NCBI GenBank assembly: GCA_036155555.1
Contig: JAYZVO010000125.1
Location: forward strand, 1 to 32,057
Source: Myxococcota bacterium
GTDB lineage: Bacteria > Myxococcota_A > Bradymonadia > Bradymonadales > Bradymonadaceae
Direction of reading: 5' to 3'
DNA: 32,057 nt
The notes under the pieces are model-generated. The model worked only from the letters and a program-made list of their open reading frames with translations, did no database searches and was not told where the DNA came from. Position 1 is the first letter of the stretch. Every line of letters begins with the position of its first letter. The position numbers and the translations under genes are program-made. Below are positions 2,219 through 31,640 of this stretch, piece by piece.

Positions 2219-2251
2219 AATGTCCTGGGCAGGCTCGCAAAATAAGGGTTC

Positions 2252-8757: not shown

Positions 8758-8783
8758 CACCTTATAAAAGGAGGGCTTGCACG

Positions 8784-9551: not shown

Positions 9552-9599
9552 TTCGGCCATTGCGCCGAACAACCTTCGCTCGCATCAGGAGAAGCGCGC

Positions 9600-10244: not shown

Positions 10245-10262
10245 ACGCCAAAGGAAGAAGCA

Positions 10263-11543
10263 ATGAGCTGGCGAGTGGCCTCGTTTATGGAGGGGTTTCC
10301 GGCGCGCTCGGAGACCTATATTTTGTGGCACATGACCGAGTTGATTCGCGCGGGTCACGACGTGACATTGTACCCGGTGCGGCGCAACTCTCCCGAGGGT
10401 GCGCACGATGAGGTCTCTCGCTACAACTTCATGGAGCGCGTCGTCGCCCCACCCGTGTGGCCAGACGAGCGCGAAGCGCGCGCCTGGGACGCCTTCACCT
10501 CGCTCGCGCGCGCGATGACACGCGATCCGATGGCGCTGCTGCGGTTGCTCGCCCACGCCACAGGAGATCGCGGCGTCGGCTGGCCCCAGATCGTGCGACA
10601 GATCGCGTGGGCACCCATAAAGAAACGACACGACGTGGCGCACGCTTACTTTGGCCCGCCAGGACGACGCGCGCAGTTCTTGCGCGATGTTGGCATGCTG
10701 CGCGCGCCGCTCGTGGTGAGCTTCCTCGGCTTCGATCTCAACGTCCTCCCAGGCAGGACAGGCCCCGATTACTACGGGCGATTGTTTGAAGGCGCAGACT
10801 GTCTGTGCGTCTCCTCTCGGTTTATGCGTCGCAAGCTCCTCTCGCTCGGCGCTCCCGAGGAGCGCATTCGCGTCCTCCCGATCGGGCTCCCCTTGAAAGG
10901 ATTTGCCTTCCGCCCGAGGCAACTCGCTGACGGCGAGACGATGACCTTGATCGCTGCCGCTCGCCTCACGGAAGTGAAAGGAATCTCCTGGGGATTGAAG
11001 GGCCTCGCGCTCGCGCGCGAGGCAGGTTTGGATGTGCGCTGGGAGATCTTTGGCGACGGCCCACTGAGAGCAGAACTCGAAGCACTGAGAGCGGAGCTTG
11101 GCCTGGAAGACGCGGTGACGTTCCATGGGTTCGTGCCAATTCAGGAGGTCCAACGCGCCATGGAGACCGCGCACGCGTGCCTGTTTCCCGGTGTCGCAGC
11201 AGCAGATGGCGCGGAAGAGGCGCTCGGAGGAGCGGTGCTCGAGGCGCAAGCCTGCGGCTTGCCCGTGATCGCATCCGAGGTTGGAGGAATCCCGGAAGGT
11301 TTCGTCCCCGGAGTCTCGGGGTATCTCGTCCCACAGCGCGATCCTGAAGCGATCGCGAAGGCGCTACGCGACCTCCACGACAACCGCGAGCAGTGGCCGA
11401 CCATGGGCGAAGCAGGGCACGCGCACGTTCAGGAGCGCTACGATTGCGAGGCGCTCAACGAGCGATGGGAGCGGCTCTATGACGGGTTAGTCGCCGGAAC
11501 GCTCCCGACGCAGGCAGAGATCGACGCGCCGCTCACGCGCTGA
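10263..11543 (+). CDS. Glycosyltransferase, family 4
   Basis: RBS AAGGAAGAAG. 'ETMTLIAAARLTEVKGISWGLKGLA...WEIFGDGPLRAELEALRAELGLEDAVTFHGFV...GGAVLEAQACGLPVIASEVGGIPEGFVPGVSGYLV' are canonical GT4 motifs. Confidence 0.8.
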   Translation: MSWRVASFMEGFPARSETYILWHMTELIRAGHDVTLYPVRRNSPEGAHDEVSRYNFMERVVAPPVWPDEREARAWDAFTSLARAMTRDPMALLRLLAHATGDRGVGWPQIVRQIAWAPIKKRHDVAHAYFGPPGRRAQFLRDVGMLRAPLVVSFLGFDLNVLPGRTGPDYYGRLFEGADCLCVSSRFMRRKLLSLGAPEERIRVLPIGLPLKGFAFRPRQLADGETMTLIAAARLTEVKGISWGLKGLALAREAGLDVRWEIFGDGPLRAELEALRAELGLEDAVTFHGFVPIQEVQRAMETAHACLFPGVAAADGAEEALGGAVLEAQACGLPVIASEVGGIPEGFVPGVSGYLVPQRDPEAIAKALRDLHDNREQWPTMGEAGHAHVQERYDCEALNERWERLYDGLVAGTLPTQAEIDAPLTR

Positions 11544-11547
11544 AAGC

Positions 11548-12654
11548 TCATCCTCGCCTCGGCGCGCGATCATAAAGATCGTGCAGGGCGCCGATGTAAC
11601 GTGACGGCGAGAAACGACGGTGCGCGATCTCTCTCGCCGCATCACCGAGCTCCTCTCGTTCGGCATCGCTCCACTCGTGAGCGGTGCGCAAGACATCGAT
11701 CCAACCTTGCAAATCAGTGGAGTCCGTGAGGTAGGCATCTCCGAGCTCTCCCATCACCTCACGCACGCCGCTCGCGGTCGAGCCGAGCGGTGGGATGCCG
11801 GTGGCCATCGCCTCGAGCAACGCCACGCTGCATCCTTCGCTGTGGGAAGGGATGACGAACACATCGTGAGCATCGAGCAGCTCTCGGACATCTGTGCGAA
11901 AACCGAGCATGGTGACGTGCGCGCCGAGGTCGAGCGTCTCGACGAGCGCCGAGAGCTCGTCGCGCAACGCGCCATCACCTGCGATATCGAGCGTGATGTC
12001 GCGTCCTTCCTCGTGCACCAGGTGTGCGACGGCGCGGAGCAACGTCTCGTGGTTTTTCACTGGCACCAACCGCCCCGCGGTGAACAGGCGCAACGGCCCC
12101 TGACGTTTGTAACCTCGGGTACGGGCGGTGAAGAATCGAGGATTGCCGCAGTTGTAGAGCAACTCGACACGATCGCGAGGCATGCGATCCTCTGTCAAAA
12201 GGTAATCACACGTCGCCTGCGAGACGCCGATCACGACATCGACGAGCCTGGAGATCGCCGCGTAGGCGAGGTTGCCTGAAGCAGAGCGCGCGGGCACGCC
12301 TGTGTCCTCGATGATCGAGAGCGGAGTGCCCGCGAGCCAGCTCGCGATGGCGCCATGAAACATCGCCTCGGCGATGCTGGCGTGGAGCACATCTGGCTTT
12401 TGTTGCGCGAGGTAAGCCCACAATTTCAAGGTCGCGCGCGGGTTGCGCACGCTCGGGTCGACGTCGAGGACATCGACGGGGACACCGAGCTCGCGGATCG
12501 CCTCGGCCGCCTGGCCCGGCTTCCAGAAGGTGCAAACGCGCAGCTCGAAGCGCTCGTGGTCCATGAGCGAGGATTGGAGCGTCACGCGCGACTCCACGCC
12601 GCCAAAGTCAAGGACTGGCAACAGGCGCACGATCTTCTTTCTACGATGGGACAT
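11548..12654 (-). CDS. Glycosyltransferase, family 4
   Basis: 'KKIVRLLPVLDFGGVESRVTLQSSL...LRLFTAGRLVPVKNHETLLRAVAHL...DIAGDGALRDELSALVETLDLGAHVTMLGFR...EGCSVALLEAMATGIPP'. Convergent with the previous gene, with 4 nt between the stops. Confidence 0.8.
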   Translation of the reverse strand: MSHRRKKIVRLLPVLDFGGVESRVTLQSSLMDHERFELRVCTFWKPGQAAEAIRELGVPVDVLDVDPSVRNPRATLKLWAYLAQQKPDVLHASIAEAMFHGAIASWLAGTPLSIIEDTGVPARSASGNLAYAAISRLVDVVIGVSQATCDYLLTEDRMPRDRVELLYNCGNPRFFTARTRGYKRQGPLRLFTAGRLVPVKNHETLLRAVAHLVHEEGRDITLDIAGDGALRDELSALVETLDLGAHVTMLGFRTDVRELLDAHDVFVIPSHSEGCSVALLEAMATGIPPLGSTASGVREVMGELGDAYLTDSTDLQGWIDVLRTAHEWSDAEREELGDAAREIAHRRFSPSRYIGALHDLYDRAPRRG

Positions 12655-15989: not shown

Positions 15990-16075
15990 AGCCTTATTCG
16001 ATTTTAACAAACAAAACAATTTGATTTTTGTAATTTTCCAAACACAAAAACTCCCTACAATCATACTCGAGAGGC
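15990..16075. promoter_or_regulatory. AT-rich island of about 85 bp (roughly 25% GC) in an otherwise high-GC intergenic region; contains a 'TACAAT' -10-like hexamer at about 16058
   Basis: 'ttattcgattttaacaaacaaaacaatttgatttttgtaattttccaaacacaaaaactccctacaatcat'. A candidate promoter, UP element or nucleoid-protein site for the downstream NfeD/flotillin genes. I could not fit a convincing -35. Confidence 0.25.
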
Positions 16076-16389: not shown

Positions 16390-17235
16390 ATGCAAGAATT
16401 TTTAACCATCATCCTCTCGATGCCCACGGTCGTATACACGGTGTTGATGGGACTCATGGCCCTCTACTGGGTCACGGTCATCATGGGCGCGGTGGATATC
16501 GACCTCTTCGATCTGGATGCAGATCTGGACGCAGATATCGACCTCGACGCGGACGTGGACCTGGATGTGGACGCGGATATCGACGTCGATGTCGACGCAG
16601 GCGTGGACACAGACATCGATCTGGACGCAGCGCATGGGAGCGCAGGGGTTGTCGTCTCGCTGCTCTCGGCGCTCGGCCTGGTGGGTGTGCCGCTGACGAT
16701 CTCGCTCAGCATCCTGGTGCTCTTTAACTGGTCATTGACCTTCTTGCTCGCCTACTCGCTGGGCGCAGGCAAGGAACCATTGAGCACCTTGTTCGGCGTG
16801 GCGGTCATGGGAGGGAGCTTGATCGCTTCGACGCTCTTGACCTCGATCGCGGTTCGTCCGATCCGCCCTCTCTTCCGCAGCAAGGCTGGCGCGAAAGCTG
16901 GCCGCGCGCTGGTGGGGATGACGATCAAGGTGACCTCGGGGAGCGTGACCGACACGTTCGGGCGCGCCGAGGGCACGTTGGATGACGCGACGATCAACTT
17001 CTCGATCCGATGCGAAGAGGAGAACAGCCTCTCCAAAGGCGATGACGCCCTGGTGATCGGATACGACGAGAACGCGCACGTTTACTACGTGGAGCCGCTC
17101 GATTCGATGTTGTCCGGGAAATCAAAGCACGGAGGGAAGAGCGCGCAGGAGCTCGAGGCTGTCTTCGACGAGCTCGAAGCTCAGCAAGAAGAAGAGGTCG
17201 AGGTCGGCGTCGAAGCCGAGGTCGACAAGGGCTAG
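16390..17235 (+). CDS. NfeD/YqiJ-like inner-membrane protein: N-terminal TM, acidic D-x repeat, 2-3 TMs, C-terminal OB-fold-like beta-barrel
   Basis: ATG 16390 is preceded by a purine-rich RBS; an alternative TTG start lies at 16372. Hydrophobic segments flank 'DIDLFDLDADLDADIDLDADVDLDVDADIDVDVDAGVDTDIDLDA'. The C-terminal 'LVGMTIKVTSGSVTDTFGRAEGTLDDATINFSIRCEEENSLSKGDDALVIGYDENAHVYYVEP' has the pattern of NfeD short-form OB domains. It lies immediately upstream of a flotillin gene, as in the yqiJ-yqiK and yuaF-floT arrangements. Confidence 0.65.
   Translation: MQEFLTIILSMPTVVYTVLMGLMALYWVTVIMGAVDIDLFDLDADLDADIDLDADVDLDVDADIDVDVDAGVDTDIDLDAAHGSAGVVVSLLSALGLVGVPLTISLSILVLFNWSLTFLLAYSLGAGKEPLSTLFGVAVMGGSLIASTLLTSIAVRPIRPLFRSKAGAKAGRALVGMTIKVTSGSVTDTFGRAEGTLDDATINFSIRCEEENSLSKGDDALVIGYDENAHVYYVEPLDSMLSGKSKHGGKSAQELEAVFDELEAQQEEEVEVGVEAEVDKG
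16495..16629 (+). repeat. Coding tandem repeat with 6-nt periodicity, (GAY-hydrophobic codon) about 22 times, encoding about 45 residues of alternating Asp and hydrophobic residues
   Basis: 'gatatcgacctcttcgatctggatgcagatctggacgcagatatcgacctcgacgcggacgtggacctggatgtggacgcggatatcgacgtcgatgtcgacgcaggcgtggacacagacatcgatctggacgca'. It also generates spurious antisense ORFs at 16402-16712. Confidence 0.85.
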
Positions 17236-17250
17236 GAGACGAACTTCGAC

Positions 17251-17307
17251 GTCACATCGTGCGGCGAGCAGAGAGAGCCGCGAGGCGTACTCGCCGCACG
17301 ATGTGAC
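17251..17307 (+). other. Strong hairpin (18-bp perfect stem GTCACATCGTGCGGCGAG/CTCGCCGCACGATGTGAC, 21-nt loop) 16 nt after the NfeD-like stop and 210 nt before the flotillin start
   Basis: Read directly. No U-tract follows. A candidate attenuator or RNA-processing/stability element setting the NfeD:flotillin ratio. Confidence 0.4.
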
Positions 17308-17518
17308 GCGATTGGAGATGGACGAAAGTGTCTATCAGCTGGTAAGTACGCCTCTCAACGAGAGGACATGAAAGGAAATGTGCCTTCGGTGTGCGTAGCT
17401 CGAGCGAGCGACTTCTCACCCCCGGGCGCTGGAAAGCAAGATACGACTCACGAGAAGCACTGGTGTCGCGGCGCGTTCGGGCGCGGTGCGGGCTTGAACC
17501 TGGAAGGAGGAAGAACTC

Positions 17519-19807
17519 ATGGGTGAAGGACCACTGTCTATTTTTGGCCTGGTGATCATCGGCGCGGTGGCGCTGCTGCTCATCGGCATCGTGGCGTTCA
17601 TCGCCAAGCTCTATCAAAAAGTCCTGCAAGGTCAGGCGCTGATCGTGAACAAGCCCAACGGGACCAAGGTCTTCTTCACGGGCGCCATCGTCGTCCCGCT
17701 CGTGCACCGTTCGGAGTACATGGACATCTCGGTCAAGACGATCGAGATCGAGCGCCAGGGGCATGACGGCTTGATCTGTAAGGACAACATCCGCGCGGAC
17801 ATCCGCGTGACGTTCTTCGTGCGCGTCAACGAGACCAGCGAAGACGTGCTCCGCGTGGCCAAGATGGTGGGTTGCCTTCGCGCATCCGACCAGGACACGA
17901 TCGAGGAGCTGTTCGGCGCCAAGTTCTCCGAGGCGCTCAAGACCGCCGGTAAGCAGTTCGAGTTCGAGGAGCTCTACCAGGCTCGTCAGGAATTCCGCGA
18001 TCAGATCATCGCCGTCATCGGCGATGACTTGAACGGCTACACGCTCGAGGATGTCGCCATCGATTACCTCGAGCAGACGCGCCGCGACTCGCTCGATCCG
18101 CACAACATCCTCGACGCCGAAGGTATCCGTAAGATCACCGAGCGCACCGAGGAGCAGCGCGTGCGCACCAACGAGCTCTCCAACTCGGCCAAGAAGAAGA
18201 TCGGTAAGGACGACCTGGAGACCAAGGTCGCCATGCTCGAGTACGAGCGCCAGCAGGCAGACGCCGAGGCTCGCCAGAAGCGCGAGATCGAGGTCGTCCG
18301 CGCCACGCAGCGCGCCTCGAGCGAGCAGGAGAAGGCCAAGCAGATCGCCCTCGAGCGCAAGGCACAGCTCGAAGCCGAGGAGTCGATCAACGTCCAGGCG
18401 ATCAACAAGAAGCGCGAGGAGCAGATGGCCGAGAAGGCCCGCGAGCGCGCGCTGATCATCGAGCAAGAATCGATCGAGAAGGAGAAGTCCCTCAAGATCA
18501 TCGAGCGCGAGCGCGAGGTCGAGATCAAGCGCATCCAGAAGGAGCGCGAGGTCGAGGTCGAGAAGAAAGAGATCGCCGAGGTCGTCTCCGACCGCATCGC
18601 CGTCGAGAAGTCGGTGGCGCAGGAAGAGGAGAACATCAAAGACTTGCGCGTGGTGGCAGACGCCGAGCGCAACAAGAAGGCGACCATCATCCGCGCCGAA
18701 GCCGAGGCGCAGCAAAAGCTCGTCGTCGACATCAAGGGCGCCGAGGCCAACGAGGAAGTCGCCAAGTACCGCGCTCGCCAGCGCATCATCGAGGCAGACG
18801 CTGACCTCGACGCGGCCGATCGCATCGCCAAGTCGAAGATCCGCATCGCTGAAGGTGTGCAAGCCGAGCAAGCCGCAGAAGGACTCGCCAAGGTGCGCGT
18901 CGAAGAGGCCGAGGCGAACGTCCTCGAGAAGCGCGGCAAGGTCGAAGCGACGGTCCTTCGCGAGAAGATGCAGGCCGAAGCGCAAGGTATGGAAGACCAG
19001 GGCATGACCAAGGTTCGCCTGCGTCAAGCCAACGCCGAAGCGCGCGAGCGTGAGGGCCAGGCAGAAGCCGACGTCACGCGCGGTCAGATGCTGGCCGAGG
19101 CCGCTGGTAAGGAAGAGCAGGACATGGTGCAGGTCCGCATCAAGCAGTCGATGGCGGACGCCATCGAGCGCGAAGGTCTGGCGCAAGCCAAGGTCATCCG
19201 CGAGAAGCTTTTGGCCGAGGCCGAGGGCTCACGCGAGCAAGGTCTGGCAGACGCTCAGGTCAAGGAAGCGCTGGCTGCTGCGACCGAGAAGCAAGGTCTG
19301 GCGGAAGCTCAGGTCATGCGTCAGAAGCTCGACGCGGAAGCATCCGGCATCGAGAAGAAGAACCTGGCACAGGCTGCGGGCATCCGCGAGCGCTTGTTGG
19401 CAGAGGCCGCTGGTATCGCCGAGAAGGCCGAGGCGATGAAGCACCTCGACGAGTACAGCCGCAAGCACGAGGAGTTCCGTCTGGCGCTCGAGCACGAGCG
19501 CGAGATCGCTCTCGAGCGACTCCGCACCAACATCGACATGGCGTCGGCGCAGGCATCGGTCTACGCAGAGGCGTTCAAGTCGGCCAACATCAACGTCGTC
19601 GGTGGAGACGAAGGGTTCTACAAGAACTTCCTCGGCTCGGTGTCCCTGGGGCACACCATCGACGGGTTCGTCGACAGCTCGGACACGGCGCGCGGGATTT
19701 TGGATCGCCTCGGCGTGGTCCTGCCCTCGGCGACGACCAACGGCGAGGCCAAGGCCGAGCCCGAGGACGCCGAGGTCGTGCCAGCTGAGGACGGCGCTGG
19801 CGAGTGA
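17519..19807 (+). CDS. Flotillin-family SPFH/Band-7 protein (YqiK/FloT-like) with an extended Glu/Ala-repeat C-terminal region
   Basis: RBS GGAAGGAGG. N-terminal TM (LVIIGAVALLLIGIVAFIA). SPFH core 'ALIVNKPNGTKVFFTGAIVVPLVHRSEYMDISVKTIEIERQG...DNIRADIRVTFFVRV...'. Long EA-rich heptad-like repeats follow (…REKLLAEAEG…, …RQKLDAEASG…, …RERLLAEAAG…), as in flotillins. 762 aa. Confidence 0.85.
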   Translation: MGEGPLSIFGLVIIGAVALLLIGIVAFIAKLYQKVLQGQALIVNKPNGTKVFFTGAIVVPLVHRSEYMDISVKTIEIERQGHDGLICKDNIRADIRVTFFVRVNETSEDVLRVAKMVGCLRASDQDTIEELFGAKFSEALKTAGKQFEFEELYQARQEFRDQIIAVIGDDLNGYTLEDVAIDYLEQTRRDSLDPHNILDAEGIRKITERTEEQRVRTNELSNSAKKKIGKDDLETKVAMLEYERQQADAEARQKREIEVVRATQRASSEQEKAKQIALERKAQLEAEESINVQAINKKREEQMAEKARERALIIEQESIEKEKSLKIIEREREVEIKRIQKEREVEVEKKEIAEVVSDRIAVEKSVAQEEENIKDLRVVADAERNKKATIIRAEAEAQQKLVVDIKGAEANEEVAKYRARQRIIEADADLDAADRIAKSKIRIAEGVQAEQAAEGLAKVRVEEAEANVLEKRGKVEATVLREKMQAEAQGMEDQGMTKVRLRQANAEAREREGQAEADVTRGQMLAEAAGKEEQDMVQVRIKQSMADAIEREGLAQAKVIREKLLAEAEGSREQGLADAQVKEALAAATEKQGLAEAQVMRQKLDAEASGIEKKNLAQAAGIRERLLAEAAGIAEKAEAMKHLDEYSRKHEEFRLALEHEREIALERLRTNIDMASAQASVYAEAFKSANINVVGGDEGFYKNFLGSVSLGHTIDGFVDSSDTARGILDRLGVVLPSATTNGEAKAEPEDAEVVPAEDGAGE

Positions 19808-19824
19808 GTGAGAGGCCCTAGAGT

Positions 19825-19874
19825 GTGAGGCGAGGAGAGTGACTGGGGTCACTCTCCTCGCCTCACGCGTTTTC
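19825..19874 (+). terminator. Rho-independent terminator after the flotillin gene (19-bp perfect GC-rich stem, 4-nt loop, then GCGTTTTC)
   Basis: GTGAGGCGAGGAGAGTGAC-TGGG-GTCACTCTCCTCGCCTCAC followed by GCGTTTTCAAC. Confidence 0.6.
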
Positions 19875-19968
19875 AACATGACGATGTGGTCAAGCGGTTC
19901 CTGGCTCGGGACACGTTTGCCCTGAGGAAGGGCGCGGTGTTCTCCGTGTGAAAGCAGGTGAGAAGAAG

Positions 19969-22900
19969 ATGACGACCGAACCGATCGAGCAAGCAGAAGC
20001 GCAGGAGTCTGGCGACGCCGCGCTCGAGACAAGCAACTACGAGGTGATCCGCAAGCGCCTCGTGGATCAAGGCCGCGAGTTGGCCAAACGCGCCGAGTCC
20101 CTGAACCAAAAGCGTCAGGACTTCTTCGGCACGATCTCGATGGAGGTCGTCGGCAACCAGACGATCACCACCGAGAACAACTGCATCCCGCAGGACATCA
20201 TCAACCTCGGGGACTGCCTGCTCTTTGGCTACAACGTCCACCGCAAGATGTCCCAGACGCAGATCCCGGATGTCTTTAGCTTGCACCGATTTAGCAAGGA
20301 AGGAGAGGAGCTCAGTCTGCGGCATGTGCCGCAGGACACGGGCGAGAACTTCCTGAGCCAGCCGCAGTTCATGGAGGACTTCGACAAGCTCTACTTCTCC
20401 TTCAAGGACGCCTTCTTGCGCCAGCTGCGCCGGACCGAAGGGCGCCTGCTCGCGATCTTCCAGACGGGCTCGAAGCTCGAGGATATCCGCGTGCTGCGTT
20501 GGGCCGTCGACGCGCATGACAACGTCACCTACATCGACAACGCTGGCGAGAAAGACAACGTCCAGGCGCGCTCGCACGACTTCGCCTGGGTCGCCACGCG
20601 CCGCGAGGACATGATCACGGGGCGCCACCCGCACATCGCGATCAAGAACAAGGTCTTCGTCGAGACCGTCGGCGGCGACCTCACCATCAAGGTCGAGGAC
20701 AACACCGAAGATGGCGTCGGCGTCTACTCCGAGCCTGTCGAGGATCAAAACCAGGCGCTCGGAGACGCCGAGATCTTTTACGCCGAGGTCGGCGCGCTGA
20801 TCCTGCTCAAGATCCGCCCCTACCGAGAGGACAACTGGCGTTACCTGGTGTTTAACACCCTGACCAAGACGGCCGCGCGCATCGACTCCATCGGGCAGTC
20901 CTGCGTGGCCTTGCCCGAGGACCACGGGATCATCTTCCCCGGCGGTTATGTGTTGGAGTCTGGCGAGGTCAAGACCTTCGAGCACGACACGCGCGATATG
21001 CGGATCGCCGAGACGCGCCGTTCGCCAAACGGCGAGGACGTGCTCTTTGCCTTCACGCGTCCGCAGGATGGGCAATACCTGTTGCTCTCCTACAACCTGA
21101 TCCGCAAGGAAGTCCTGAACCCGATCCTGTGCCACGGCTACTCGATCTTTGACGATGGCACGATGATCATCTTCCGCTCGACGGGGGACCAACAAACGCG
21201 CCACCACCCGATGCAAGTCTGGGGGACGCCGTTTTTGTCGGACGAGTACGCGGCGCAGATCCCATCGGATGGATCGCTGCTCTCCAAGATCGGCAACGCC
21301 GAGCTGGTGCGCGGCATTTCGGATGGCTTGACCATCCGAAAAATGATCAACAACCAGGAGCCGACCACCGAGATCTACACCTCGATCATCTCGGCCGCCG
21401 AGCGCATGATCGACGCCTACTACTGGATCGGCGAATCAGAAGCGGGCGACATGCGCGCGCCACTGCGCGAGGTCGTCAAGACGGCGACGTTGATTATCGA
21501 GGAGTTCGAGAAAGTCCGCGCGATGCGCCAGAACGCACGCGAGGCGCTCCGTGAAGCGGAGCGCGAGCAGTCGCGCCTCTTTGGCGATATTCGCTACGCG
21601 AACTGGCGCGAGATCGGGCGCTTTGTCGACGGATTGGATGGGCTGCGCAGCCAGCGAGGTCGCCTGATCACGCTGCGCGAAATGAAGTACATGCAGGTCG
21701 AGCGCATCGACGAGCTCGAGCAGGAGGTCATCGACCACTACGACAAACTCTCGAAGGCGACCGTCAGTTTCTTGCTCGGTGAGGGCTCGCTCTCGACCTA
21801 CCGCGCGAAAATCGACGCCGTGATCAAGGGGATCGAGGAGATCCAGACGACCGTCGAGGCCACAAAGATCAAGGAGGAGCTCGACACCATCGGCGAGGGG
21901 CTCAACCTCCTGACCGAGGTCATCAGCGGACTCAAGATCGAGGACCCCACCGCGCGCACGCAGATCCTCGAGAACATCGCCGAGGTGCTCGGGCAGCAGA
22001 ACCGCGCCCGCGCCATGCTCGACGCCAAGAACCGCGCGCTGCTCGAGACGGAGGGGCGCGCCGAATTCGCCGTGCAATTCCAGCTGCTCGGGCAGTCGGT
22101 CACGAGCGCCATCTCCATGGCCGAGACGCCCGAGCGATGCGACGAGCAGCTCGAGCGCATGATGGTCCAGCTCCAGGAGATGGAGAGCCGCTTTAGCGAG
22201 TTCGACATGTTTCTGGCGCAGCTGACCGAGAAGCGCGAGGAGATCTACGAGGTCTTCGAGACGCGCAAGCAGCAACTGATCGAGGCGCGCCAGCGCAAGG
22301 CATCGACGATCAACCAGGCCGCCGAGAAGATCCTGGCGGGCATCCAGCGCCGCGCGCGCAAGATGGAGGATGTCGAGGCGCTCAACGCTTATTTTGCCGC
22401 CGATGCCATGGTCATCAAGATCCGCGAGATGGCCACGCAGCTTCGCGAGTTGAAAGAGCCCGTCAAGGCCGACGACCTCGAGAACCAGCTCAAGGCCACG
22501 CGCGATCAATCGATCCGCACGTTGCGCGACAAGCTCGACCTGTTCGAAGGGGGCGACGCCGTCATCAAGCTCGGCAAGCACCGCTTTAGCATCAACACAC
22601 AGTCGCTCGAGCTCACGATGGTGCCCCGTGATAACGAGGTTCGCCTCCACATCACTGGCACCGACTTCTACGAGCAGGTCGAGGACAAGGAGTTCCTCGA
22701 GACGCGCTACCTCTGGGATCAACAGCTGATCTCGGAGACGCGCGACGTGTACCGTGGCGAGTATCTGGCGGCGTGCATCCTCGAGGATGCACGCACCAAG
22801 GCCAAGGGCTACACGATCCCGGATCTCTTCGATCTCTCGGTCAAGGACGACGAGCTGTTGCTGGTCGTGCGCAAGTACATCGAGGAGCGCTACGACGAGG

Positions 22901-25713
22901 GTTACGAGCGCGGCGTGCACGACACGGACACGACGCAGATCCTGACCGCGTTGCTCGGGCTCTACATCACGGCTGGGTTGCTCCGGTTCGGGTCGAAGGC
23001 GCGCGCGTTGGCGACGCTCTACTGGGCCACCGAGCCAGAAGAGCTCGAGGTCGAGAAGACATCAGCGATGACGCTCGAGCAGCGTCGCAAGGCCAAGGAG
23101 TCCCCGGCGCAAAGACGCCGCAAGCTGCTCGTTCGCCGCGCGCAATCATTCGGGAGGTTGAGAAAGACCTTCTCGTCGGCCTCCGCGGTCGCGGAGCTTC
23201 GCGCCGAGGTCGCCAGAGAACTCGGCGGCTTCTGCGAAGAGCATGGCCTGGATGACATCTTCTCGGGTCGCGTGCGCGTCGAAGCTGCCGACTACCTCAT
23301 CGAGGAGCTAGCAGCTGGCGAGCACCCACACTTTATTTTGAACTCCGAGGCGGAGCAGCTCGCGCGCAAGTTCTTCGACCACCTGGACCTGAGCAACTCG
23401 CGCAAGGACTTCGAGGATGATCTCGAAACATTGACCGGCGAGCTCGAGGCGAGCTGGGAGTTGGCGAGCAGCTGGCTCGCCGCATACACCGAGCAACGCC
23501 GCGAGGACGAAACGCCCGTCGGGTACCTGATGGACGAGACCATCGCGTACCTGATCACGAGCGGACAGATCGAGCGCGAGATCTCTTCGGCAAAGACCGA
23601 GACCCAGGTCAAGGAGTTGCTCGGGCAGCACCCGAGGATCGTCTCGCAAGTGCTCACGATCCGCCTGGACGAGTTCCTCTCGAGGTTGGATCGCTACATC
23701 CACGAGCGCGCGCCGGAGTACCGCGCCTACCGCAAGCTCTCGCACACGGTGCTCGACCGAGTGCGCAAGAGGTTGCGTCTGGACGAGCTCAAGCCGCGCG
23801 TGCTCTCGACGTTCGTGCGTAACCGGCTTATCGACGAGGTTTATCTGCCGTTGATCGGTGACAACCTCGCCAAGCAGATGGGCTCGGTGGGCGAATCAGG
23901 GCGCTCGGACAGGCAAGGCTTGCTGCTGCTCATCTCGCCGCCAGGTTACGGCAAGACGACGTTGATGGAGTATGTGGCGAACCGCCTCGGGCTGACGTTC
24001 ATGAAGATCAACGGCCCCGCGATCGGGCACCACGTGGTCTCGCTCGATCCGAGCGAGGCGCCAAACGCCACGGCGCGGCAGGAGGTCGAGAAGATCAACC
24101 TCTCGCTGCGCATGGGCAACAACGTGATGCTTTACCTGGATGATATCCAGCACTGTAACCCGGAGTTGTTGCAGAAGTTCATCTCGTTGTGTGATGCCAC
24201 GCGTCGCATCGAGGGTGTCTGGGATGGCCAGACAAAGACCTACGACCTTCGCGGCAAGCGCTTCTCGGTGGTCATGGCGGGGAACCCGTACACCGAGACC
24301 GGCGAGCGATTCCAGATCCCGGACATGCTCGCCAACCGCGCGGACACCTACAACCTGGGTGATATCCTGGAAGGTTCGCAGGATGCGTTCGCGCTCAGTT
24401 ACATCGAGAACGCGCTCACATCGAACCCTGTGCTCGCGCCTCTGTCGAACAGGGAGAAGGAGGACATTCACCTCTTTATCCGCATGGCGCAGGGCGAGGA
24501 TATCGCGCTGACGGACATGAAGTATAGCTACTCTGCGGTCGAGGCGAACGAGATCGTGACCGTTCTGAAGAAGCTGTTTGTCTGTCAGGATGTCCTGTTG
24601 CAGGTCAACCAGGCCTACATCGAGTCGGCGTCACAGGATGATGCTTATCGCACCGAGCCGCCGTTCAAGCTCCAGGGTTCGTACCGCAACATGACCAAGC
24701 TGGCCGAGAAGGTCGTCTCTGCCATGAACGATCAGGAGCTCGAGGCGCTGATCGATGACCACTACCTTGGCGAATCGCAGACGTTGACCACGGAAGCGGA
24801 GCAGAACTTGCTCAAGCTCAAGGAGATCCGAGGGCGTCTCACCGCAGAGGAGAAGGAGCGCTGGGAGTCGATCAAGAAAGAATACCGCCGTCGCAAGATG
24901 ATGGGTGGTGGGGACAATGATCCTGTGAGTCGGGTCGCCGGACCGATCAGCTCGTTGGTGCAGCGCGTCGAGGAGCTCCAGGGCGTGTTCCAGGGCAACA
25001 GCCAACTCAACACACCGCTCGAGGGTATCCGGGACGCGATCACCACAGCGGTCGCGCAACTCCAGACCGAGGGCGTGGCGTCGAAGAGCAACGAGGGCCA
25101 GCAAAACACAGGCTTGAGCCCTCAGGTGATCGAGCAACTCACCGCAGCGATCGCGGCGATGGGAGCGAGCAACAGCAACAACGGCAAGCACTCTGACCAG
25201 GTCGAGGCGTTGTTGCAGCGGCAGACGTTGATGTTCGAGGGCGCCTTCGGCGCGATCGAGAAGTTGGCGGATGCACAGGCGAACTCGAACCGCCAGAGCG
25301 CGGATACGCTGCGCTCGATCGAGAAGCTGATGCAGTCAGCTCCTGTGGCGCTCAAGACACCACCTCCGGGCTCGTTCGGAGGAGCACCTGTTGCGGGTCA
25401 GGGGCACACAATGCCAGCATCCTCATCGGGAGATGGTGGGGGAGGCTTTGGCGATCGTCCTTTGACGGGGGTCAAGAAGCGGCTTCCATTCAAGGAAGCG
25501 CGCAAACAAACCGCCGAGCACGAGGCGATCTCTCGCGATGATCCTCCGACCGAGGATGAGGCGAGCAGCGCACCAGCAAACACCTCCTCGCCGCAGGAGG
25601 CGCCTTTGACAAACGAGGCAAATCCAGCGCGAGCACAGGAGCCAAACGAAGCACAAGGTGGTAAAAAGAAAGGGAAGGTTCGCCTGGAGCCGCCATTTGA
25701 CACCGAAGATTGA
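19969..25713 (+). CDS. Giant (1,914-aa) protein: about 470-aa N-terminal beta-rich domain, about 800 aa coiled-coil/helical region, single AAA+ ATPase module of the MoxR/dynein (AAA_5) type, and about 440-aa helical plus low-complexity C-terminal tail
   Basis: SD AGGTGA 7 nt before ATG 19969; a GTG start at 19948 is also possible. Walker A 'LLLISPPGYGKTTLMEYVANRLG' at nt about 23944-23961. Walker B/helix 'NNVMLYLDDIQHCNPELLQKFISLCD' at about 24128-24143. Sensor-1-like 'RFSVVMAGNPYTE'. 'IPDMLANRADTYNL' resembles the MoxR 'LPEALLDRF' region. Heptad-rich segment about 21400-22550. The C-terminus is Q/S/N/G/P-rich and ends KKKGKVRLEPPFDTED. No protease, nuclease or VWA motifs were seen. Confidence 0.8.
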   Translation: MTTEPIEQAEAQESGDAALETSNYEVIRKRLVDQGRELAKRAESLNQKRQDFFGTISMEVVGNQTITTENNCIPQDIINLGDCLLFGYNVHRKMSQTQIPDVFSLHRFSKEGEELSLRHVPQDTGENFLSQPQFMEDFDKLYFSFKDAFLRQLRRTEGRLLAIFQTGSKLEDIRVLRWAVDAHDNVTYIDNAGEKDNVQARSHDFAWVATRREDMITGRHPHIAIKNKVFVETVGGDLTIKVEDNTEDGVGVYSEPVEDQNQALGDAEIFYAEVGALILLKIRPYREDNWRYLVFNTLTKTAARIDSIGQSCVALPEDHGIIFPGGYVLESGEVKTFEHDTRDMRIAETRRSPNGEDVLFAFTRPQDGQYLLLSYNLIRKEVLNPILCHGYSIFDDGTMIIFRSTGDQQTRHHPMQVWGTPFLSDEYAAQIPSDGSLLSKIGNAELVRGISDGLTIRKMINNQEPTTEIYTSIISAAERMIDAYYWIGESEAGDMRAPLREVVKTATLIIEEFEKVRAMRQNAREALREAEREQSRLFGDIRYANWREIGRFVDGLDGLRSQRGRLITLREMKYMQVERIDELEQEVIDHYDKLSKATVSFLLGEGSLSTYRAKIDAVIKGIEEIQTTVEATKIKEELDTIGEGLNLLTEVISGLKIEDPTARTQILENIAEVLGQQNRARAMLDAKNRALLETEGRAEFAVQFQLLGQSVTSAISMAETPERCDEQLERMMVQLQEMESRFSEFDMFLAQLTEKREEIYEVFETRKQQLIEARQRKASTINQAAEKILAGIQRRARKMEDVEALNAYFAADAMVIKIREMATQLRELKEPVKADDLENQLKATRDQSIRTLRDKLDLFEGGDAVIKLGKHRFSINTQSLELTMVPRDNEVRLHITGTDFYEQVEDKEFLETRYLWDQQLISETRDVYRGEYLAACILEDARTKAKGYTIPDLFDLSVKDDELLLVVRKYIEERYDEGYERGVHDTDTTQILTALLGLYITAGLLRFGSKARALATLYWATEPEELEVEKTSAMTLEQRRKAKESPAQRRRKLLVRRAQSFGRLRKTFSSASAVAELRAEVARELGGFCEEHGLDDIFSGRVRVEAADYLIEELAAGEHPHFILNSEAEQLARKFFDHLDLSNSRKDFEDDLETLTGELEASWELASSWLAAYTEQRREDETPVGYLMDETIAYLITSGQIEREISSAKTETQVKELLGQHPRIVSQVLTIRLDEFLSRLDRYIHERAPEYRAYRKLSHTVLDRVRKRLRLDELKPRVLSTFVRNRLIDEVYLPLIGDNLAKQMGSVGESGRSDRQGLLLLISPPGYGKTTLMEYVANRLGLTFMKINGPAIGHHVVSLDPSEAPNATARQEVEKINLSLRMGNNVMLYLDDIQHCNPELLQKFISLCDATRRIEGVWDGQTKTYDLRGKRFSVVMAGNPYTETGERFQIPDMLANRADTYNLGDILEGSQDAFALSYIENALTSNPVLAPLSNREKEDIHLFIRMAQGEDIALTDMKYSYSAVEANEIVTVLKKLFVCQDVLLQVNQAYIESASQDDAYRTEPPFKLQGSYRNMTKLAEKVVSAMNDQELEALIDDHYLGESQTLTTEAEQNLLKLKEIRGRLTAEEKERWESIKKEYRRRKMMGGGDNDPVSRVAGPISSLVQRVEELQGVFQGNSQLNTPLEGIRDAITTAVAQLQTEGVASKSNEGQQNTGLSPQVIEQLTAAIAAMGASNSNNGKHSDQVEALLQRQTLMFEGAFGAIEKLADAQANSNRQSADTLRSIEKLMQSAPVALKTPPPGSFGGAPVAGQGHTMPASSSGDGGGGFGDRPLTGVKKRLPFKEARKQTAEHEAISRDDPPTEDEASSAPANTSSPQEAPLTNEANPARAQEPNEAQGGKKKGKVRLEPPFDTED

Positions 25714-25724: not shown

Positions 25725-25754
25725 GCGGCGCGTAGAGCGCGCTCTACGCGCCGC
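25725..25754. repeat. 30-bp perfect palindrome (GCGGCGCGTAGAGCGC|GCTCTACGCGCCGC) 11 nt after the giant gene's stop
   Basis: Read directly. No T-tract. Possibly a weak terminator, an RNA stabilizer or a protein-binding site. Confidence 0.5.
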
Positions 25755-25777: not shown

Positions 25778-26917
25778 ATGTCCTACCACTACTTGTTGAT
25801 CGCCCTGCTCCTCGTCGCTCCTGCGGCGACTGCGTGCACGAATAAGGCGAAGAAGGCCGAGGAGCCCGTTCGCCTGACACGTGAAGAGGACTGGACCGTC
25901 GAGACGTTCGAGATCTCTGAGAGCGGCGTGTGGATCGAAGGGGACGAGCGCATCCAGCTGCCGTTCTGGGCGGTCGGCGGTGTGATCCGCGTCGATGATA
26001 AGCTGATCCCCAAGCGCGTGTTCAACGAGGTCGCGCGCCAGCAAGCCCACCGAAACATCGCCAGACACTTGCACAGAAGTTACGCGCAGATCGTCCTGGA
26101 TCGCATCGTGTCGGGCTACTTGCTCGACAAGGCCGCCGAGGATGCTGGCGTGGTCATCGAGGAAGAGGCTGTCGATGCCGAGGTGGAGAAGTCTCTGTCG
26201 AAGCTCGAAACCCAGGAAGATATCGACGCCTACTTCGACTCCGTGGGGCTCGACGCCAGGAGCTACCGCGATTTGATCCGACGGCAGCTCTACCACAAGC
26301 AATTCCTGACCGAGGTTTACGAAGTCCGCGTCACCGAGCAAGAAGCGCAAGATCACTACAAGCGCTACAAGCGCCGCTATGACAAGAAGGCCGAGGTCAA
26401 GGCGAGCCACATCCTGTTCAAGTTCAGCAGCAGCCGCCCTTCCCCCGAGGAGGTCGAGAAGAAGCGCAAGGAGGCAGTGTCAGTCGCGCAAATGGCGAGG
26501 CAACCTGGCGCGAACTTCGCGGAGTTGGCCAGGCAATACTCGGAGGGACCGTCGGGGCCAAAAGGAGGAGACCTGGGTTATTTCCAGGCGAACCGGATGG
26601 TGCGCCCCTTCTCGGACAAGGCGTTCTCGATGCAAGTTGGCGAGGTGAGCGAGCCGGTCAAGACGCGCTTCGGGTGGCATGTCATAAGGGTCGAGGACAG
26701 GAAACCTGCGCGACTTATCCCATTCGAGGAGGTGCGTGAGGAGCTCGAAATGGAGTTGCTCCAGAAGAAGCTCGTGCAGGCACAGAATGTGTTCCTGCGT
26801 CGAGCCAAGAGCGAGCATGACATCGAATACCTGACACGCAACATCCGTTATCACGAGAAGAAAGCCCCCTCGACGCAGCCGCGCCGATACCCGGAGTCGC
26901 AGCCGCGCTACCCCTGA
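25778..26917 (+). CDS. Parvulin-type peptidyl-prolyl cis-trans isomerase lipoprotein (SurA/PrsA-like)
   Basis: Signal/lipobox 'LLIALLLVAPAATAC'. Parvulin domain 'KASHILFKF...ELARQYSEGPSGPKGGDLGYFQANRMVRPFSDKAFSMQVGEVSEPVKTRFGWHVIRVEDRKP'. Confidence 0.8.
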   Translation: MSYHYLLIALLLVAPAATACTNKAKKAEEPVRLTREEDWTVETFEISESGVWIEGDERIQLPFWAVGGVIRVDDKLIPKRVFNEVARQQAHRNIARHLHRSYAQIVLDRIVSGYLLDKAAEDAGVVIEEEAVDAEVEKSLSKLETQEDIDAYFDSVGLDARSYRDLIRRQLYHKQFLTEVYEVRVTEQEAQDHYKRYKRRYDKKAEVKASHILFKFSSSRPSPEEVEKKRKEAVSVAQMARQPGANFAELARQYSEGPSGPKGGDLGYFQANRMVRPFSDKAFSMQVGEVSEPVKTRFGWHVIRVEDRKPARLIPFEEVREELEMELLQKKLVQAQNVFLRRAKSEHDIEYLTRNIRYHEKKAPSTQPRRYPESQPRYP

Positions 26918-27061
26918 ACCTGAGCGAGAATGGAGCGCCTCGCGTGTGCGGCGAGAGAGACGTGTTCGTTTCGCTCGCTCGCCTGCGGTGGCCACTCTGA
27001 ACCGTGTCCAAACCATCGCGGTGATTTTACGCGAGCCCCTTTCGTGCCCGAGGTACCCTGC

Positions 27062-28165
27062 ATGTTTCGTCCATCGATAGTGCTTCTGATTCTGTCCATG
27101 TGCGCGCTCTCAGCCTGCGCGGGTCAAAAGAAAGCGCAGGAAGATCCTGCGCCGTTGACCAACAACGAGAAGCCAACGGACCTCTTCAGGGTCACGCCCG
27201 AGGGCGTGTTGACGCGCGGCGACACCTCGATGGAGCTTTTGTTCTGGGCTGTGGGGCCTGTCGCGACCGTCGATGGAGAGGCGATCACGGAGGGGCACTT
27301 CAACCGCGAATCCTACAAGATGCAGAAGGTCACCGGGGGGAGGATTCCCCCTGAATATGCAACGATCTATGTGCAGAAGCTCGTGGAGCAGATCGTGGAG
27401 AAGACCTTGCTCGGGCGCGAGGTCGAGGCAGACGGCATCGAGGTACCAAAGGATCTGGTCGACGCAGAGCTCCAACAGATGCGCGAGTCCTCGCCCAGGG
27501 TCTTCGAGATGATCACGGGTGACGGGAAGATGACGATGGAGGAGCTCCGCGAGGAGGTTCGCCAACAGCTCGCCATCCGTTTGTTGTTGAAGAAGCGTTA
27601 TGGTTTGGAGGTAAGCGAAGAAGAGATCGCCAGGTACTACGATGAGAACGCGTACAGGTATGAGCAAGAGGAGCAAGTGAGCGCGCGCCACATCCTGTTC
27701 AAGCTCGACAGTGAGGCTTCTCCTGACGAAATCGAGGCCGCGCGCAAACGCGCCGAAGAGGTCATGTTGCTCGCGAAGCAGCCGGACGCAGACTTCGGGG
27801 AGTTGGCCAAACAATACTCGGAGGGACCGTCAGCGCCAAAAGGAGGAGACCTGGGTTACTTCCCAGCGAAGCGGATGGTGGAGCCCTTTTCGAAGGCTGC
27901 CTTCGCGCTCCAGATCGGAGAGGTGAGCGAGCCGGTCAAGACGCAGTTTGGATGGCATCTGATCAAGGTCGAAGGGAAGAAACCTGCGCGCACGGTCCCC
28001 TTTGAAGAGGTCAAAGATCAAATCCGCGAGCAGCTCGAAGCCAAGCAGCTCCGAAACGCCTACGGCACGCTTCTTGACGAGGTAAAAGCCAAGGCCGAGG
28101 TCACGATGCTCTTCGAGAACATCCGGTATCGCGGGGACGTGAGCAGCGAGACGCCCGAGCCCTGA
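27062..28165 (+). CDS. Parvulin-type PPIase lipoprotein, a tandem paralog of the previous gene
   Basis: Start at ATG 27062 ('MFRPSIVLLILSMCALSACAG', a lipoprotein signal) rather than the in-frame 26930 extension. Parvulin domain 'SARHILFKL...ELAKQYSEGPSAPKGGDLGYFPAKRMVEPFSKAAFALQIGEVSEPVKTQFGWHLIKVEGKKP'. Over 60% identical to the upstream paralog in this domain. Confidence 0.8.
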   Translation: MFRPSIVLLILSMCALSACAGQKKAQEDPAPLTNNEKPTDLFRVTPEGVLTRGDTSMELLFWAVGPVATVDGEAITEGHFNRESYKMQKVTGGRIPPEYATIYVQKLVEQIVEKTLLGREVEADGIEVPKDLVDAELQQMRESSPRVFEMITGDGKMTMEELREEVRQQLAIRLLLKKRYGLEVSEEEIARYYDENAYRYEQEEQVSARHILFKLDSEASPDEIEAARKRAEEVMLLAKQPDADFGELAKQYSEGPSAPKGGDLGYFPAKRMVEPFSKAAFALQIGEVSEPVKTQFGWHLIKVEGKKPARTVPFEEVKDQIREQLEAKQLRNAYGTLLDEVKAKAEVTMLFENIRYRGDVSSETPEP

Positions 28166-30572: not shown

Positions 30573-31388
30573 TCACTCTTCGATGTTCTCGATGACACCC
30601 TCGATGTAGTTCTTGCGCGTTTCAGCGTTCATGCCACGGAGCTTGCGACACATCGCGCTGATTTTCTGGGCGTCGATCTCCTCGAGGTTCTCTGCGCCCA
30701 TGCGCTCGACGTAGAGGTTCTGGAAGCTATCGCAGACCTCGGGTTCGGCGGACTCTTCGAGCAGCGCGCGGAACTCCTTGCTGCGCTCGGACCACTTGTT
30801 CTTCTCGTTCTCGGCCTTCTCTTCGGGGGCAGCCACGGCTTTTGGAGCTGGAGCAGCCTTTGGAGCAGCTTTTGGCGTAGGCGCAGGAGCTTGTTTGCGG
30901 CCGTTGACGGGGCGAGGAGCGTCGTCGTTCTCAGGATCGTCCCCGGTCGAGATGAGGAAGGTCTTGAGGAGGAAGTACTTGATCGCGCCGGTGTAAGCCT
31001 TGTAGTAGCCCTTGTCGCCGTTATCGAGGCCCTGCCCAACCCAGGTCGTGGTCATCATGTCACCGGATTCGCCGTCGATGAGGCTAACATCGAGGGTGAC
31101 GGTGGTCAGGTAGACGGTGCGGTTGCGAGCATCCTGGAGCTCATCCACGGTGTGTTCGCGAACGCTGGGGAAGAGCGCGACGCCTTGCTCGGCGAGCTTG
31201 GTGCGGATGTGGTCGACGAGGTCAGACTCGTAAACGTAGTCGTAACCGTGGAAGTCGTTGCGGCCGTTTTTGGGGACGCGGTGCACATCCATGAGGACCG
31301 TTGCCAACTTGCGAGCCAGCGGACGACCTTGCTCGGGGAGTGCTTGAGGAGGCGTTGGGAAGTGTGTGATGTTTGGGTTGGTGGCCAT
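30573..31388 (-). CDS. ERF-family single-strand annealing protein (phage P22 Erf-like recombinase)
   Basis: 'VPKNGRNDFHGYDYVYESDLVDHI' aligns with the Erf N-terminal 'APKNQYNSFGKYKYRSCEDILEGV' as I recall the P22 sequence. '…DKGYYKAYTGAIKYFLLKTFLISTGDDPENDD' aligns with the Erf 'KGMDAAQVTGATSSYARKYCLNGLFGIDDAKDAD' region. A Pro/Ala/Lys-rich linker precedes an acidic C-terminal domain. RBS GAGAGGGA. Confidence 0.8.
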   Translation of the reverse strand: MATNPNITHFPTPPQALPEQGRPLARKLATVLMDVHRVPKNGRNDFHGYDYVYESDLVDHIRTKLAEQGVALFPSVREHTVDELQDARNRTVYLTTVTLDVSLIDGESGDMMTTTWVGQGLDNGDKGYYKAYTGAIKYFLLKTFLISTGDDPENDDAPRPVNGRKQAPAPTPKAAPKAAPAPKAVAAPEEKAENEKNKWSERSKEFRALLEESAEPEVCDSFQNLYVERMGAENLEEIDAQKISAMCRKLRGMNAETRKNYIEGVIENIEE

Positions 31389-31579
31389 GACGTCCCTCTC
31401 TTATTTAAGGCGTTGCTGTGAAAGCTTGCTCTTCTTGAAACTCATCCGCTCTATCCTGGAGCGATGTGACGGGAGATGAACCGTGTCCCCGTCGTGACAG
31501 TTTCAATTGTAGGGAGGCCCCCCAAACTCTCAATGTCTTGTTTTTACGCAATACGATCAAAAACCACCACCAACCACTT

Positions 31580-31640
31580 CTTACCATCGTTATACGACCA
31601 AAAACAAAGCTTGCTTGGCTTACCATCGCCATACAAGCCA
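31580..31640. repeat. Two imperfect 21-nt direct repeats, CTTACCATCG(T/C)(T/C)ATAC(G/A)A(C/G)CCA, spaced about 39 bp apart in a low-GC region upstream of the ERF gene
   Basis: 'cttaccatcgttatacgacca' (31580-31600) and 'cttaccatcgccatacaagcca' (31619-31640). The surrounding 31400-31800 is markedly AT-richer than the rest of the window. Confidence 0.4.

Follow-up and report, generated by a model that had tools for sequence, protein, structure and literature searches.

A conserved gene triad on a Myxococcota contig, coding for a membrane protein of the YqiJ type, a flotillin of the YqiK type and a giant AAA+ ATPase with DUF3686: a candidate membrane-stress module

The stretch of DNA analyzed here, referred to as the window, comprises one contig (32,057 bp; approximately 60% guanine plus cytosine, GC) from a Myxococcota metagenome-assembled genome (MAG). 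It contains three co-oriented open reading frames (ORFs) on the + strand, encoding in order a YqiJ-like membrane protein, a flotillin of the SPFH family and a giant ATPase, and these three genes are referred to below as the triad (Table 1). A first-pass annotation of this DNA had described a row of co-oriented genes for a YqiJ/NfeD-type protein, a flotillin and a giant AAA+ protein, and this description was confirmed by ORF analysis, profile comparison and Pfam searches. The first two products carry the NCBI label "hypothetical protein", and the 1,914-aa form of the third is identical to NCBI protein P0001, "DNA repair ATPase [Myxococcota bacterium]".

Table 1. Features of the triad in the window, in nucleotide positions, with residue ranges of the ATPase domains (aa) and the basis of each assignment
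Feature	Position	Strand	Basis
YqiJ-type (NfeD-like) membrane protein, 281 aa	16390..17235	+	ORF; hhalign against YqiJ; hydrophobic segments
Perfect 19-nt inverted repeat with 21-nt loop, shortly past the YqiJ-like stop codon	17250..17308	+	Lies in 283-nt spacer
YqiK-type flotillin (SPFH family), 762 aa	17519..19807	+	ORF; hhalign against YqiK; NCBIfam FloT
Perfect hairpin in which 19825-19843 pairs with 19848-19866 (stem extendable to 21 bp), 4-nt loop	19825..19866	+	Minimum free energy z -5.1
Giant cytoplasmic DUF3686 AAA+ ATPase, 1,914 aa from ATG (1,921 from GTG at 19948)	19969..25713	+	ORF; Pfam
Conserved helix before the propeller	aa 30-60	+	AlphaFold
Beta-propeller, approximately 27 strands, core of DUF3686	20143..21225, aa 66-426	+	Pfam; AlphaFold pLDDT 87; 41 invariant residues
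Helical-bundle rod including DUF7902 (nt 21787-22035)	21277..22542, aa 444-865	+	AlphaFold
Conserved middle region	22561..23664, aa 872-1239	+	AlphaFold; conservation
AAA+ core	23815..24372, approximately aa 1290-1475	+	Pfam AAA_5/AAA; invariant motifs; Foldseek
Lid and conserved C-terminal helical region, invariant LQGSYRNM with R1580	24373..25047, aa 1476-1700	+	AlphaFold; conservation
Low-complexity, non-conserved C-terminal tail	25048..25710, aa 1701-1921	+	75% gaps in orthologues
GC-rich palindrome immediately 3' of the ATPase gene, where the unit probably ends	25725..25754	+	

The small membrane protein was assigned to the YqiJ type by comparison of a profile of 65 orthologues with E. 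coli YqiJ using hhalign (probability 94.9, E 4.7e-8, 128 columns), the match taking in the membrane segments as well as the soluble C-terminal part. Translation from ATG 16390 is considered more likely than from an alternative in-frame TTG at 16372, because orthologues share the conserved N-terminus MxxFLxxxLxFPTV. The protein has several N-terminal hydrophobic segments with an acidic loop after the first; a basic stretch comes next, and the C-terminal region is soluble. The acidic loop (approximately nt 16492-16629, aa 35-80) is a low-complexity (D-x)n repeat, DIDLFDLDADLDADIDLDADVDLDVDADIDVDVDAGVDTDIDLD, and a repeat of this kind also occurs in the orthologue at locus L009 of the survey described below; among orthologues the loop is acidic, nearly free of K/R and highly variable in length, and may serve to bind cations or to set surface charge. 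No Pfam match to the window protein was obtained even at E<=10 and none in NCBIfam, YqiJ_N was matched in Pfam by only 2/65 orthologues, and searches of PDB sequences with the protein alone and with the orthologue profile retrieved nothing, NfeD structures included.

The flotillin was identified similarly, a profile of 76 orthologues aligning with E. coli YqiK over 412 columns at 30% identity (hhalign probability 99.9, E 8.5e-34). A weak FloT match was given by NCBIfam (E 7e-4, aa 20-307), and members of the JGI cluster of this protein are named 'uncharacterized membrane protein YqiK'. A single N-terminal hydrophobic anchor (within aa 1-37) is followed by K-rich residues, an SPFH-homologous region and long E/A-rich helical repeats; the lysines after the anchor would, by the positive-inside rule, place the bulk of the protein in the cytoplasm. 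Pfam Band_7 and Flot gave no match even at E<=10, orthologues were likewise without a precomputed Pfam match, and PDB sequence searches with the flotillin alone and with the profile of 76 orthologues found no chain. This silence of Pfam is taken to reflect a divergent subfamily rather than non-membership. A flotillin subfamily specific to the triad was considered and dropped, as the flotillins beside distant ATPases are only 29-32% identical to the window protein and E. coli YqiK is equally far (30%) from the orthologue profile.

The giant ATPase has no hydrophobic segment along its whole length. Pfam assigned DUF3686 to aa 44-492 (nt 20077-21423, E 2.5e-188), DUF7902 to aa 614-696 (E 3.4e-26) and, over gathering scores, AAA/AAA_5 to aa 1326-1449 (E 2.4e-07), and the same scan detected neither Peptidase_M41 or another protease domain nor any DNA-binding, nuclease or helicase domain. 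The first-pass claim that the AAA+ module is the sole recognizable catalytic element of this protein was borne out. AlphaFold models of aa 1-720 (pLDDT 87, predicted local distance difference test) and aa 721-1700 (pLDDT 84) were generated from 58-sequence alignments. When the propeller was compared with known structures by Foldseek it matched generic propellers only (tricorn, prolyl oligopeptidase, clathrin terminal domain, IFT-A and Vps11; E ~1e-5). The middle region is composed, in order, of a small beta subdomain (872-910, VIKLG.HRFSVNTQ.LELT), a helical domain (936-1200) and a second small beta subdomain (1210-1239), from which a long helix leads to the AAA+ core. The part between propeller and AAA+ core had initially been described as an approximately 800-aa coiled coil; it is indeed mostly helical, but in the AlphaFold models helical bundles (444-865) are followed by conserved beta and helical domains (872-1289), and this domain order indicates a partly globular conserved rod rather than a featureless coiled coil.

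The ATPases of the DUF3686/BacE type, to which the window protein belongs, are about 1,600-2,000 aa long and combine an N-terminal DUF3686 with DUF7902 and one C-terminal AAA+ module. Out of 1.84 billion, 715 representatives at 50% identity belong to the DUF3686 family; at 90% identity it has more than 6,000 clusters, and no relative was found in the viral contigs searched. One homologue, P0061 from Chondromyces crocatus, bears an N-terminal PilZ domain (PF07238), hinting at control by cyclic di-GMP in some myxobacteria. The designation 'DNA repair ATPase' is the NCBI name of the whole family and comes from the Pfam description line. A literature search found no paper on DUF3686 or PF12458 and none linking 'DNA repair ATPase' with flotillin; the name has no support in sequence, context or literature and should not be propagated.

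The AAA+ core carries a Walker A motif, SPPGYGKTT (nt 23935-23961), and a Walker B motif, VMLYLDDIQH (nt 24124-24153, aa 1393-1402). Residues GYGKTT, LDD, sensor-1 N1446, R1464 and R1580 are invariant in 64/64 ATPase sequences, the Walker B motif thus being DD and not the canonical DE throughout the alignment. Since the Walker B glutamate activates water in AAA+ proteins, finding DD in every sequence suggests that hydrolysis is slow or regulated. Scores against AAA_5 (31.3 bits) and classic AAA (31.4 bits) in Pfam were level. In Foldseek searches with the AAA+ core, RuvB was the best match by E-value and the MoxR proteins NorQ and CbbQ were best by target TM-score (0.5-0.59), and a PDB sequence search with the ATPase gave a match limited to the Walker A region. 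An 'NP' following sensor-1 and an L-x-N-R-A motif are reminiscent of the MoxR signature.

To assess linkage of the three genes, one GTDB genome per species was scanned with an alignment of 30 ATPase homologues. At least 567 loci with an ATPase relative were found, and the best 80 were taken with 10-kb flanks. These derive from Actinomycetota (34), Gammaproteobacteria (20), Myxococcota (19), Betaproteobacteria (2), an unclassified proteobacterium and one each of Planctomycetota, Lentisphaeria, Acidobacteriota and a MAG labelled Clostridia. Six loci were added, namely one alphaproteobacterial MAG, P. aeruginosa and four distant members (30-32% identity in the DUF3686 region), with partner genes verified by BLASTP or by hidden Markov model. 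Three of the 80 loci are uninformative on the upstream gene, their contigs starting <=78 nt from the ATPase match. In 77/80 loci, and so in every one of the 77 with upstream sequence, the ATPase gene is preceded in the same orientation by a flotillin orthologue sharing 43-57% identity with that of the window, and with the added loci included the flotillin is directly upstream of the ATPase in 83/83 examinable cases. Ahead of the flotillin, a YqiJ-like gene was recognized by BLASTP in 64 loci and by clustering in 70, the latter being a minimum, and the same triad is present in the alphaproteobacterial MAG, P. aeruginosa and the four distant members. The spacer between flotillin and ATPase has a median length of 68 nt, with frames overlapping by 1-8 nt in 14 loci (start codons as assigned here), and is interrupted by insertions in two loci only, L033 (6.4 kb) and L070 (3.4 kb, with an NYN-domain gene). 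Matrices of pairwise identity for flotillin and ATPase correlate at r = 0.94, indicating that the genes are inherited as a unit, although contact between the proteins is not proven by this value alone. No other neighbour is kept across phyla beside the triad. These data demonstrate near-obligate linkage of ATPase and flotillin across at least seven phyla, and the neighbourhood analysis of giant ATPase homologues that the first-pass annotation had proposed therefore came out in favour of the linkage, with flotillin always and a YqiJ-like gene nearly always in place.

Additional genes accompany the triad in some lineages. Genes for DUF2170 (CesT/Tir-like) and PspA lie directly upstream in 16/80 loci and a gene for a PLD-type hydrolase lies downstream in 8/80, all of them in Proteobacteria. 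A rhomboid intramembrane-protease gene adjoins the triad in 7/80 loci, usually between the ATPase and PLD genes (at 15364-15936 in L024, and downstream of the ATPase gene in L049, L050, L059, L060 and L045). Among the distant loci, L088 has a rhomboid gene just upstream of the module (2192-2857), L085 a TelA-family gene directly after the ATPase gene (11001-12221) and L087 a PspA gene approximately 6 kb downstream (16780-16866). The added genes (PspA, DUF2170, PLD, rhomboid and TelA) belong to membrane-associated or envelope-stress families.

The statement in the first-pass annotation that such a pairing is not a described system proved wrong, as the operon paragraph of Ravi et al. (2024; PMC11237479) gives the same gene order and domains, including a PspA-less form. 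That paragraph describes an operon including CesT/Tir-PspA, a band-7/flotillin protein, a "novel AAA+ ATPase" and a YqiJ/YuaF-type 3TM protein, the ATPase being fused to a coiled coil and a beta-propeller (example Dokdonia donghaensis ANH61663.1), and PLD being added in some Proteobacteria. Shorter operons that lack PspA are there called 'more widely distributed' and are said to include the ATPase only 'in some cases' (PMC11237479). Because the proteobacterial loci analyzed here match that operon, as outlined there, gene for gene, the DUF3686 protein is identified with its ATPase. The rhomboid gene is absent from the operon account in that paragraph.

The triad is also found within a locus studied in P. 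aeruginosa, the 'biofilm-associated cluster' bacABCDEF (PA3732-PA3727 / PA14_16140-16200; Wallart et al. 2024, PMC10948618). Reverse transcription PCR showed that bacA-F form one transcript, bacD (flotillin) together with bacE included; all bac products are increased 6-13 fold in a bacA mutant, and a sigma-54 promoter was proposed (PMC10948618). The identity of BacE is not stated in that paper. The P. aeruginosa locus recovered here has the order DUF2170, PspA, a 213-aa protein, a 688-aa protein, P0131, PLD, YaeQ, RecJ and LasB, where P0131 is the 1,746-aa DUF3686 protein of this species, with 3,222 sequences in its 90% cluster. As this gene order is that of the bac locus, BacE/PA3728 is identified by synteny as the DUF3686 ATPase. 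Genes PA3728-PA3732 were up-regulated in all phage-infected samples of a further study (PMC12041424). Separately, three studies of cystic-fibrosis isolates list PA3728 as a gene with recurrent mutations (PMC8190622), which may simply reflect gene length. The triad of the window is an abbreviated, PspA-less form of the PspA-linked bac-type operon.

The hairpin between the flotillin and ATPase genes had been reported in the first-pass annotation as an intrinsic terminator (19825-19874) implying partly separate transcription of the ATPase gene. The hairpin is real; however, it is followed by GTTTTC only and a consensus terminator scan made no call, nor does it count against linkage, because hairpins recur at this place in other lineages and the genes overlap in 14 loci. 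When 38 orthologous flotillin-ATPase spacers of 60-500 nt were surveyed (e.g. L054, L073, L077, L056 and L059), a hairpin more stable than in shuffled sequences was present in 27/38 at z < -2 and in 19/38 at z < -3, and the L059 spacer contains a textbook terminator. The window hairpin is a candidate leaky or partial terminator or messenger RNA (mRNA) stabilizer that would keep the scaffold protein above the level of the enzyme, and a leaky hairpin fits the read-through seen in P. aeruginosa. In the window a hairpin follows each gene of the triad (Table 1), and other perfect or near-perfect GC-rich hairpins lie elsewhere on the contig (15851-15943, 2180-2218, 28720-28770 and 30433-30490), several of them after unrelated genes, and an inverted repeat with 30-nt arms is present upstream of the operon; the contig hairpins look like T-tract-poor terminators or mRNA-stabilizing elements typical of a high-GC genome. 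A candidate promoter region is an AT-rich stretch at 16000-16070, which lies approximately 320 nt ahead of the YqiJ-like start codon. A sigma-70 scan of 15.6-26 kb found no promoter, and an Rfam scan of the window returned nothing, so that no known riboswitch or leader lies upstream.

The genes flanking the triad are unrelated to it. Upstream are a polysaccharide-synthesis cluster and a divergent PPK2 gene, and directly 3' of the ATPase gene are two tandem paralogous genes for PpiC-type peptidyl-prolyl isomerases with SurA-like N-terminal domains (25778-26917 and 26930-28165). The PPK2 and the two PpiC/SurA-like genes were considered as parts of the system and rejected because they are absent from beside the triad in all 80 loci. 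The region at 434-12654 begins with a gene for an RCC1-repeat protein (434-2185) followed by the polysaccharide cluster, which encodes four GT4 glycosyltransferases, an NAD-dependent epimerase, a methyltransferase and an APS kinase; two ORFs within it (2252-4297 and 7810-8757) are without Pfam match. At the opposite end of the contig a gene for an ERF-superfamily single-strand annealing recombinase lies on the - strand (30573-31388) and GC falls to 0.55 at 31001-32000, which together may mark the edge of a prophage or other mobile element.

Taken together, the triad is on balance likely to be a membrane-stress module in which a MoxR-like AAA+ ATPase with propeller and helical-bundle arms acts on a flotillin scaffold or on its clients. 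The membrane-stress context is suggested by the PspA, DUF2170, PLD, rhomboid and TelA genes nearby in other loci and by phage induction in Pseudomonas. Solved SPFH-NfeD and flotillin complexes form membrane assemblies. By analogy the flotillin, anchored by its N-terminal segment, would build an SPFH-NfeD-type assembly with the YqiJ-like protein on the cytoplasmic side of the membrane. The ATPase would oligomerize through its AAA+ module, its propeller and rod serving as arms that contact this assembly. By binding ATP and hydrolysing it slowly it could then assemble, disassemble or reshape the scaffold, or act in this way on PspA polymers or clients located there, presumably in response to damage of the membrane or envelope. 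A narrower proposal, advanced tentatively, is that the DUF3686 protein may be the dedicated and obligate ATP-driven partner of a single flotillin lineage in bacteria, a non-proteolytic AAA+ ring whose helical-bundle arms, tipped by propellers, let it assemble, disassemble or move the flotillin/YqiJ scaffold, together with PspA where present. If so, it would represent the first known energy-consuming machine acting on an SPFH scaffold itself, being for flotillin what Vps4 is for ESCRT-III.

The main rival to scaffold remodelling is the handling of clients. It is possible, though somewhat doubtful, that the triad is a client-directed quality-control hub, in which a flotillin/YqiJ cage corrals membrane proteins and the AAA+ protein serves as a MoxR-like chaperone or extractor acting on these clients, which are possibly passed to a rhomboid or other protease, the scaffold itself not being remodelled; parallels would be HflK/C-FtsH and SLP2-YME1L-PARL. 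The fold of the AAA+ core, closest by target TM-score to the MoxR chaperones NorQ and CbbQ, is consistent with such a role, as is the beta-propeller, a typical client- or peptide-binding domain, and SPFH-AAA partnerships are established for HflK/C-FtsH. The ATPase has no protease domain, however, and although a rhomboid gene adjoins the module in 7/80 loci and in L088 it is absent from most. An aromatic pore-loop motif is not evident between Walker A and Walker B, and the VWA partner usual for MoxR proteins is absent here.

Induction of the P. aeruginosa operon by phage infection also raises the question of whether the triad is an anti-phage or abortive-infection defence built on a membrane scaffold. 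Patchy spread across phyla, the horizontal transfer proposed for paFlo3 (PMC13086221) and the occurrence of a self-contained module in varying neighbourhoods would all fit. Phage induction is, however, also classic for the Psp envelope-stress response, none of the three proteins matches PADLOC, and no homologue was found in viral contigs. The P. aeruginosa copy moreover occupies a fixed chromosomal site near recJ and lasB in a 90% cluster of 3,222 sequences, and, PLD in a minority of loci aside, nuclease and other effector domains are lacking, making a defence function improbable. That the protein is a DNA-repair ATPase merely lying beside membrane genes is scarcely credible despite its database name (NCBI, Pfam DUF3686 description), the presence of RuvB among the best structural matches of the AAA+ core and the position of recJ two genes downstream in P. 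aeruginosa, since the RuvB likeness is limited to the generic AAA+ core with MoxR proteins better covered, no DNA-binding, nuclease or helicase domain was detected, the literature search yielded no paper on DUF3686 or PF12458, and the neighbours are membrane-protein genes in 83/83 loci, recJ not being conserved beside the module.

Several observations weigh against a membrane-stress module of the kind proposed. Genes for PspA, CesT-like and PLD proteins were not found anywhere in the 32-kb window, and the link to stress is therefore borrowed from other lineages. The spacers within the triad are long (283 and 161 nt), each with a strong hairpin, so that co-transcription in the host organism is uncertain, and no sigma-54 promoter was found upstream of the operon, the total number of matches being below chance. 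Membrane topology is predicted from the positive-inside rule only, and the DD Walker B motif may indicate a slow switch rather than a motor. Deletion of paFlo3, the P. aeruginosa flotillin gene, resulted in approximately 20% less biofilm and no other phenotype (PMC13086221). The literature search found no experiment on the ATPase; mention of PA3728/PA14_16190 was confined to the bac paper, lists of genes and expression data.

The linkage matters in that the role of bacterial flotillins is unsettled and single mutants are often weak (e.g. PMC13086221), and a large, highly conserved ATPase whose gene keeps company with that of a flotillin gives a concrete handle on it. An ATPase never found apart from flotillin points to energy-dependent scaffold assembly, turnover or client handling. 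Screens of gene neighbourhoods based on domains miss this linkage because Pfam is blind to both the flotillin and the YqiJ-like partner. PA3728/BacE offers a ready genetic system, in an operon that is phage-induced and tied to biofilm and virulence phenotypes. What is added here comprises the count of linkage from the ATPase side, the identification of BacE as a DUF3686 protein, the domain map, the DD Walker B motif, the recurrent hairpin, the association with rhomboid genes and the recognition that the family name is unfounded.

Partnerships between SPFH proteins and AAA+ proteins are known from HflK/C-FtsH, prohibitin-m-AAA and SLP2-YME1L-PARL, and the triad resembles these in pairing an SPFH scaffold with an AAA+ ATPase. 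Unlike the FtsH-type partners, its ATPase has neither a protease domain nor a membrane anchor, probably belongs to the AAA_5/MoxR-like branch, and reaches approximately 1,900 aa in length, propeller and rod included. The rhomboid-bearing loci recall the mitochondrial SLP2-YME1L-PARL hub, in which SPFH, AAA+ and rhomboid proteins likewise come together. With the MoxR remodellers NorQ/NorD, CbbQ/CbbO and RavA/ViaA the ATPase can be compared through its Pfam AAA_5 match and through NorQ and CbbQ being its best structural matches by target TM-score; it differs in approximately 1,290 aa of additional N-terminal domains and in its DD Walker B motif. A VWA neighbour, the MoxR-type partner, is not conserved among the examined loci, in which the flotillin and YqiJ-like genes are the only conserved neighbours. 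The analogy of PspA/ESCRT-III polymers with Vps4 was raised in the paragraph of Ravi et al. (PMC11237479), and the triad is comparable in that a membrane-bound helical scaffold is combined with a dedicated cytoplasmic AAA+ protein, PspA being part of the operon in 16 loci. It differs from Vps4 in that the AAA+ module is probably not of the Vps4/classic AAA type, no MIT domain was detected and PspA is absent from the window.

Also related are the pairs of NfeD-like protein and flotillin represented by E. coli YqiJ-YqiK and B. subtilis YuaF-FloT. The first two genes of the window are homologous to yqiJ and yqiK and arranged in the same way, but in E. coli no ATPase gene follows yqiK, and the window proteins are too divergent for the Pfam Band_7, Flot, YqiJ and NfeD models. 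A further counterpart is the P. aeruginosa bac operon, of which the window lacks BacA (DUF2170), BacB (PspA), BacF (PLD) and a sigma-54 promoter match, and from which it differs in its long hairpin-bearing spacers. It encodes orthologues of BacC (31% identity), BacD/PaFlo3 (45%) and BacE (47% over 1,657 aa), with gene order and strand as in PA3730-PA3728. The account of Ravi et al. (2024), a single paragraph, is unquantified and does not name DUF3686 there, whereas here linkage was counted from the ATPase side as 83/83. Computational work had thus described the system before, and its Pseudomonas version is being studied; the window adds to it one member of the short form.

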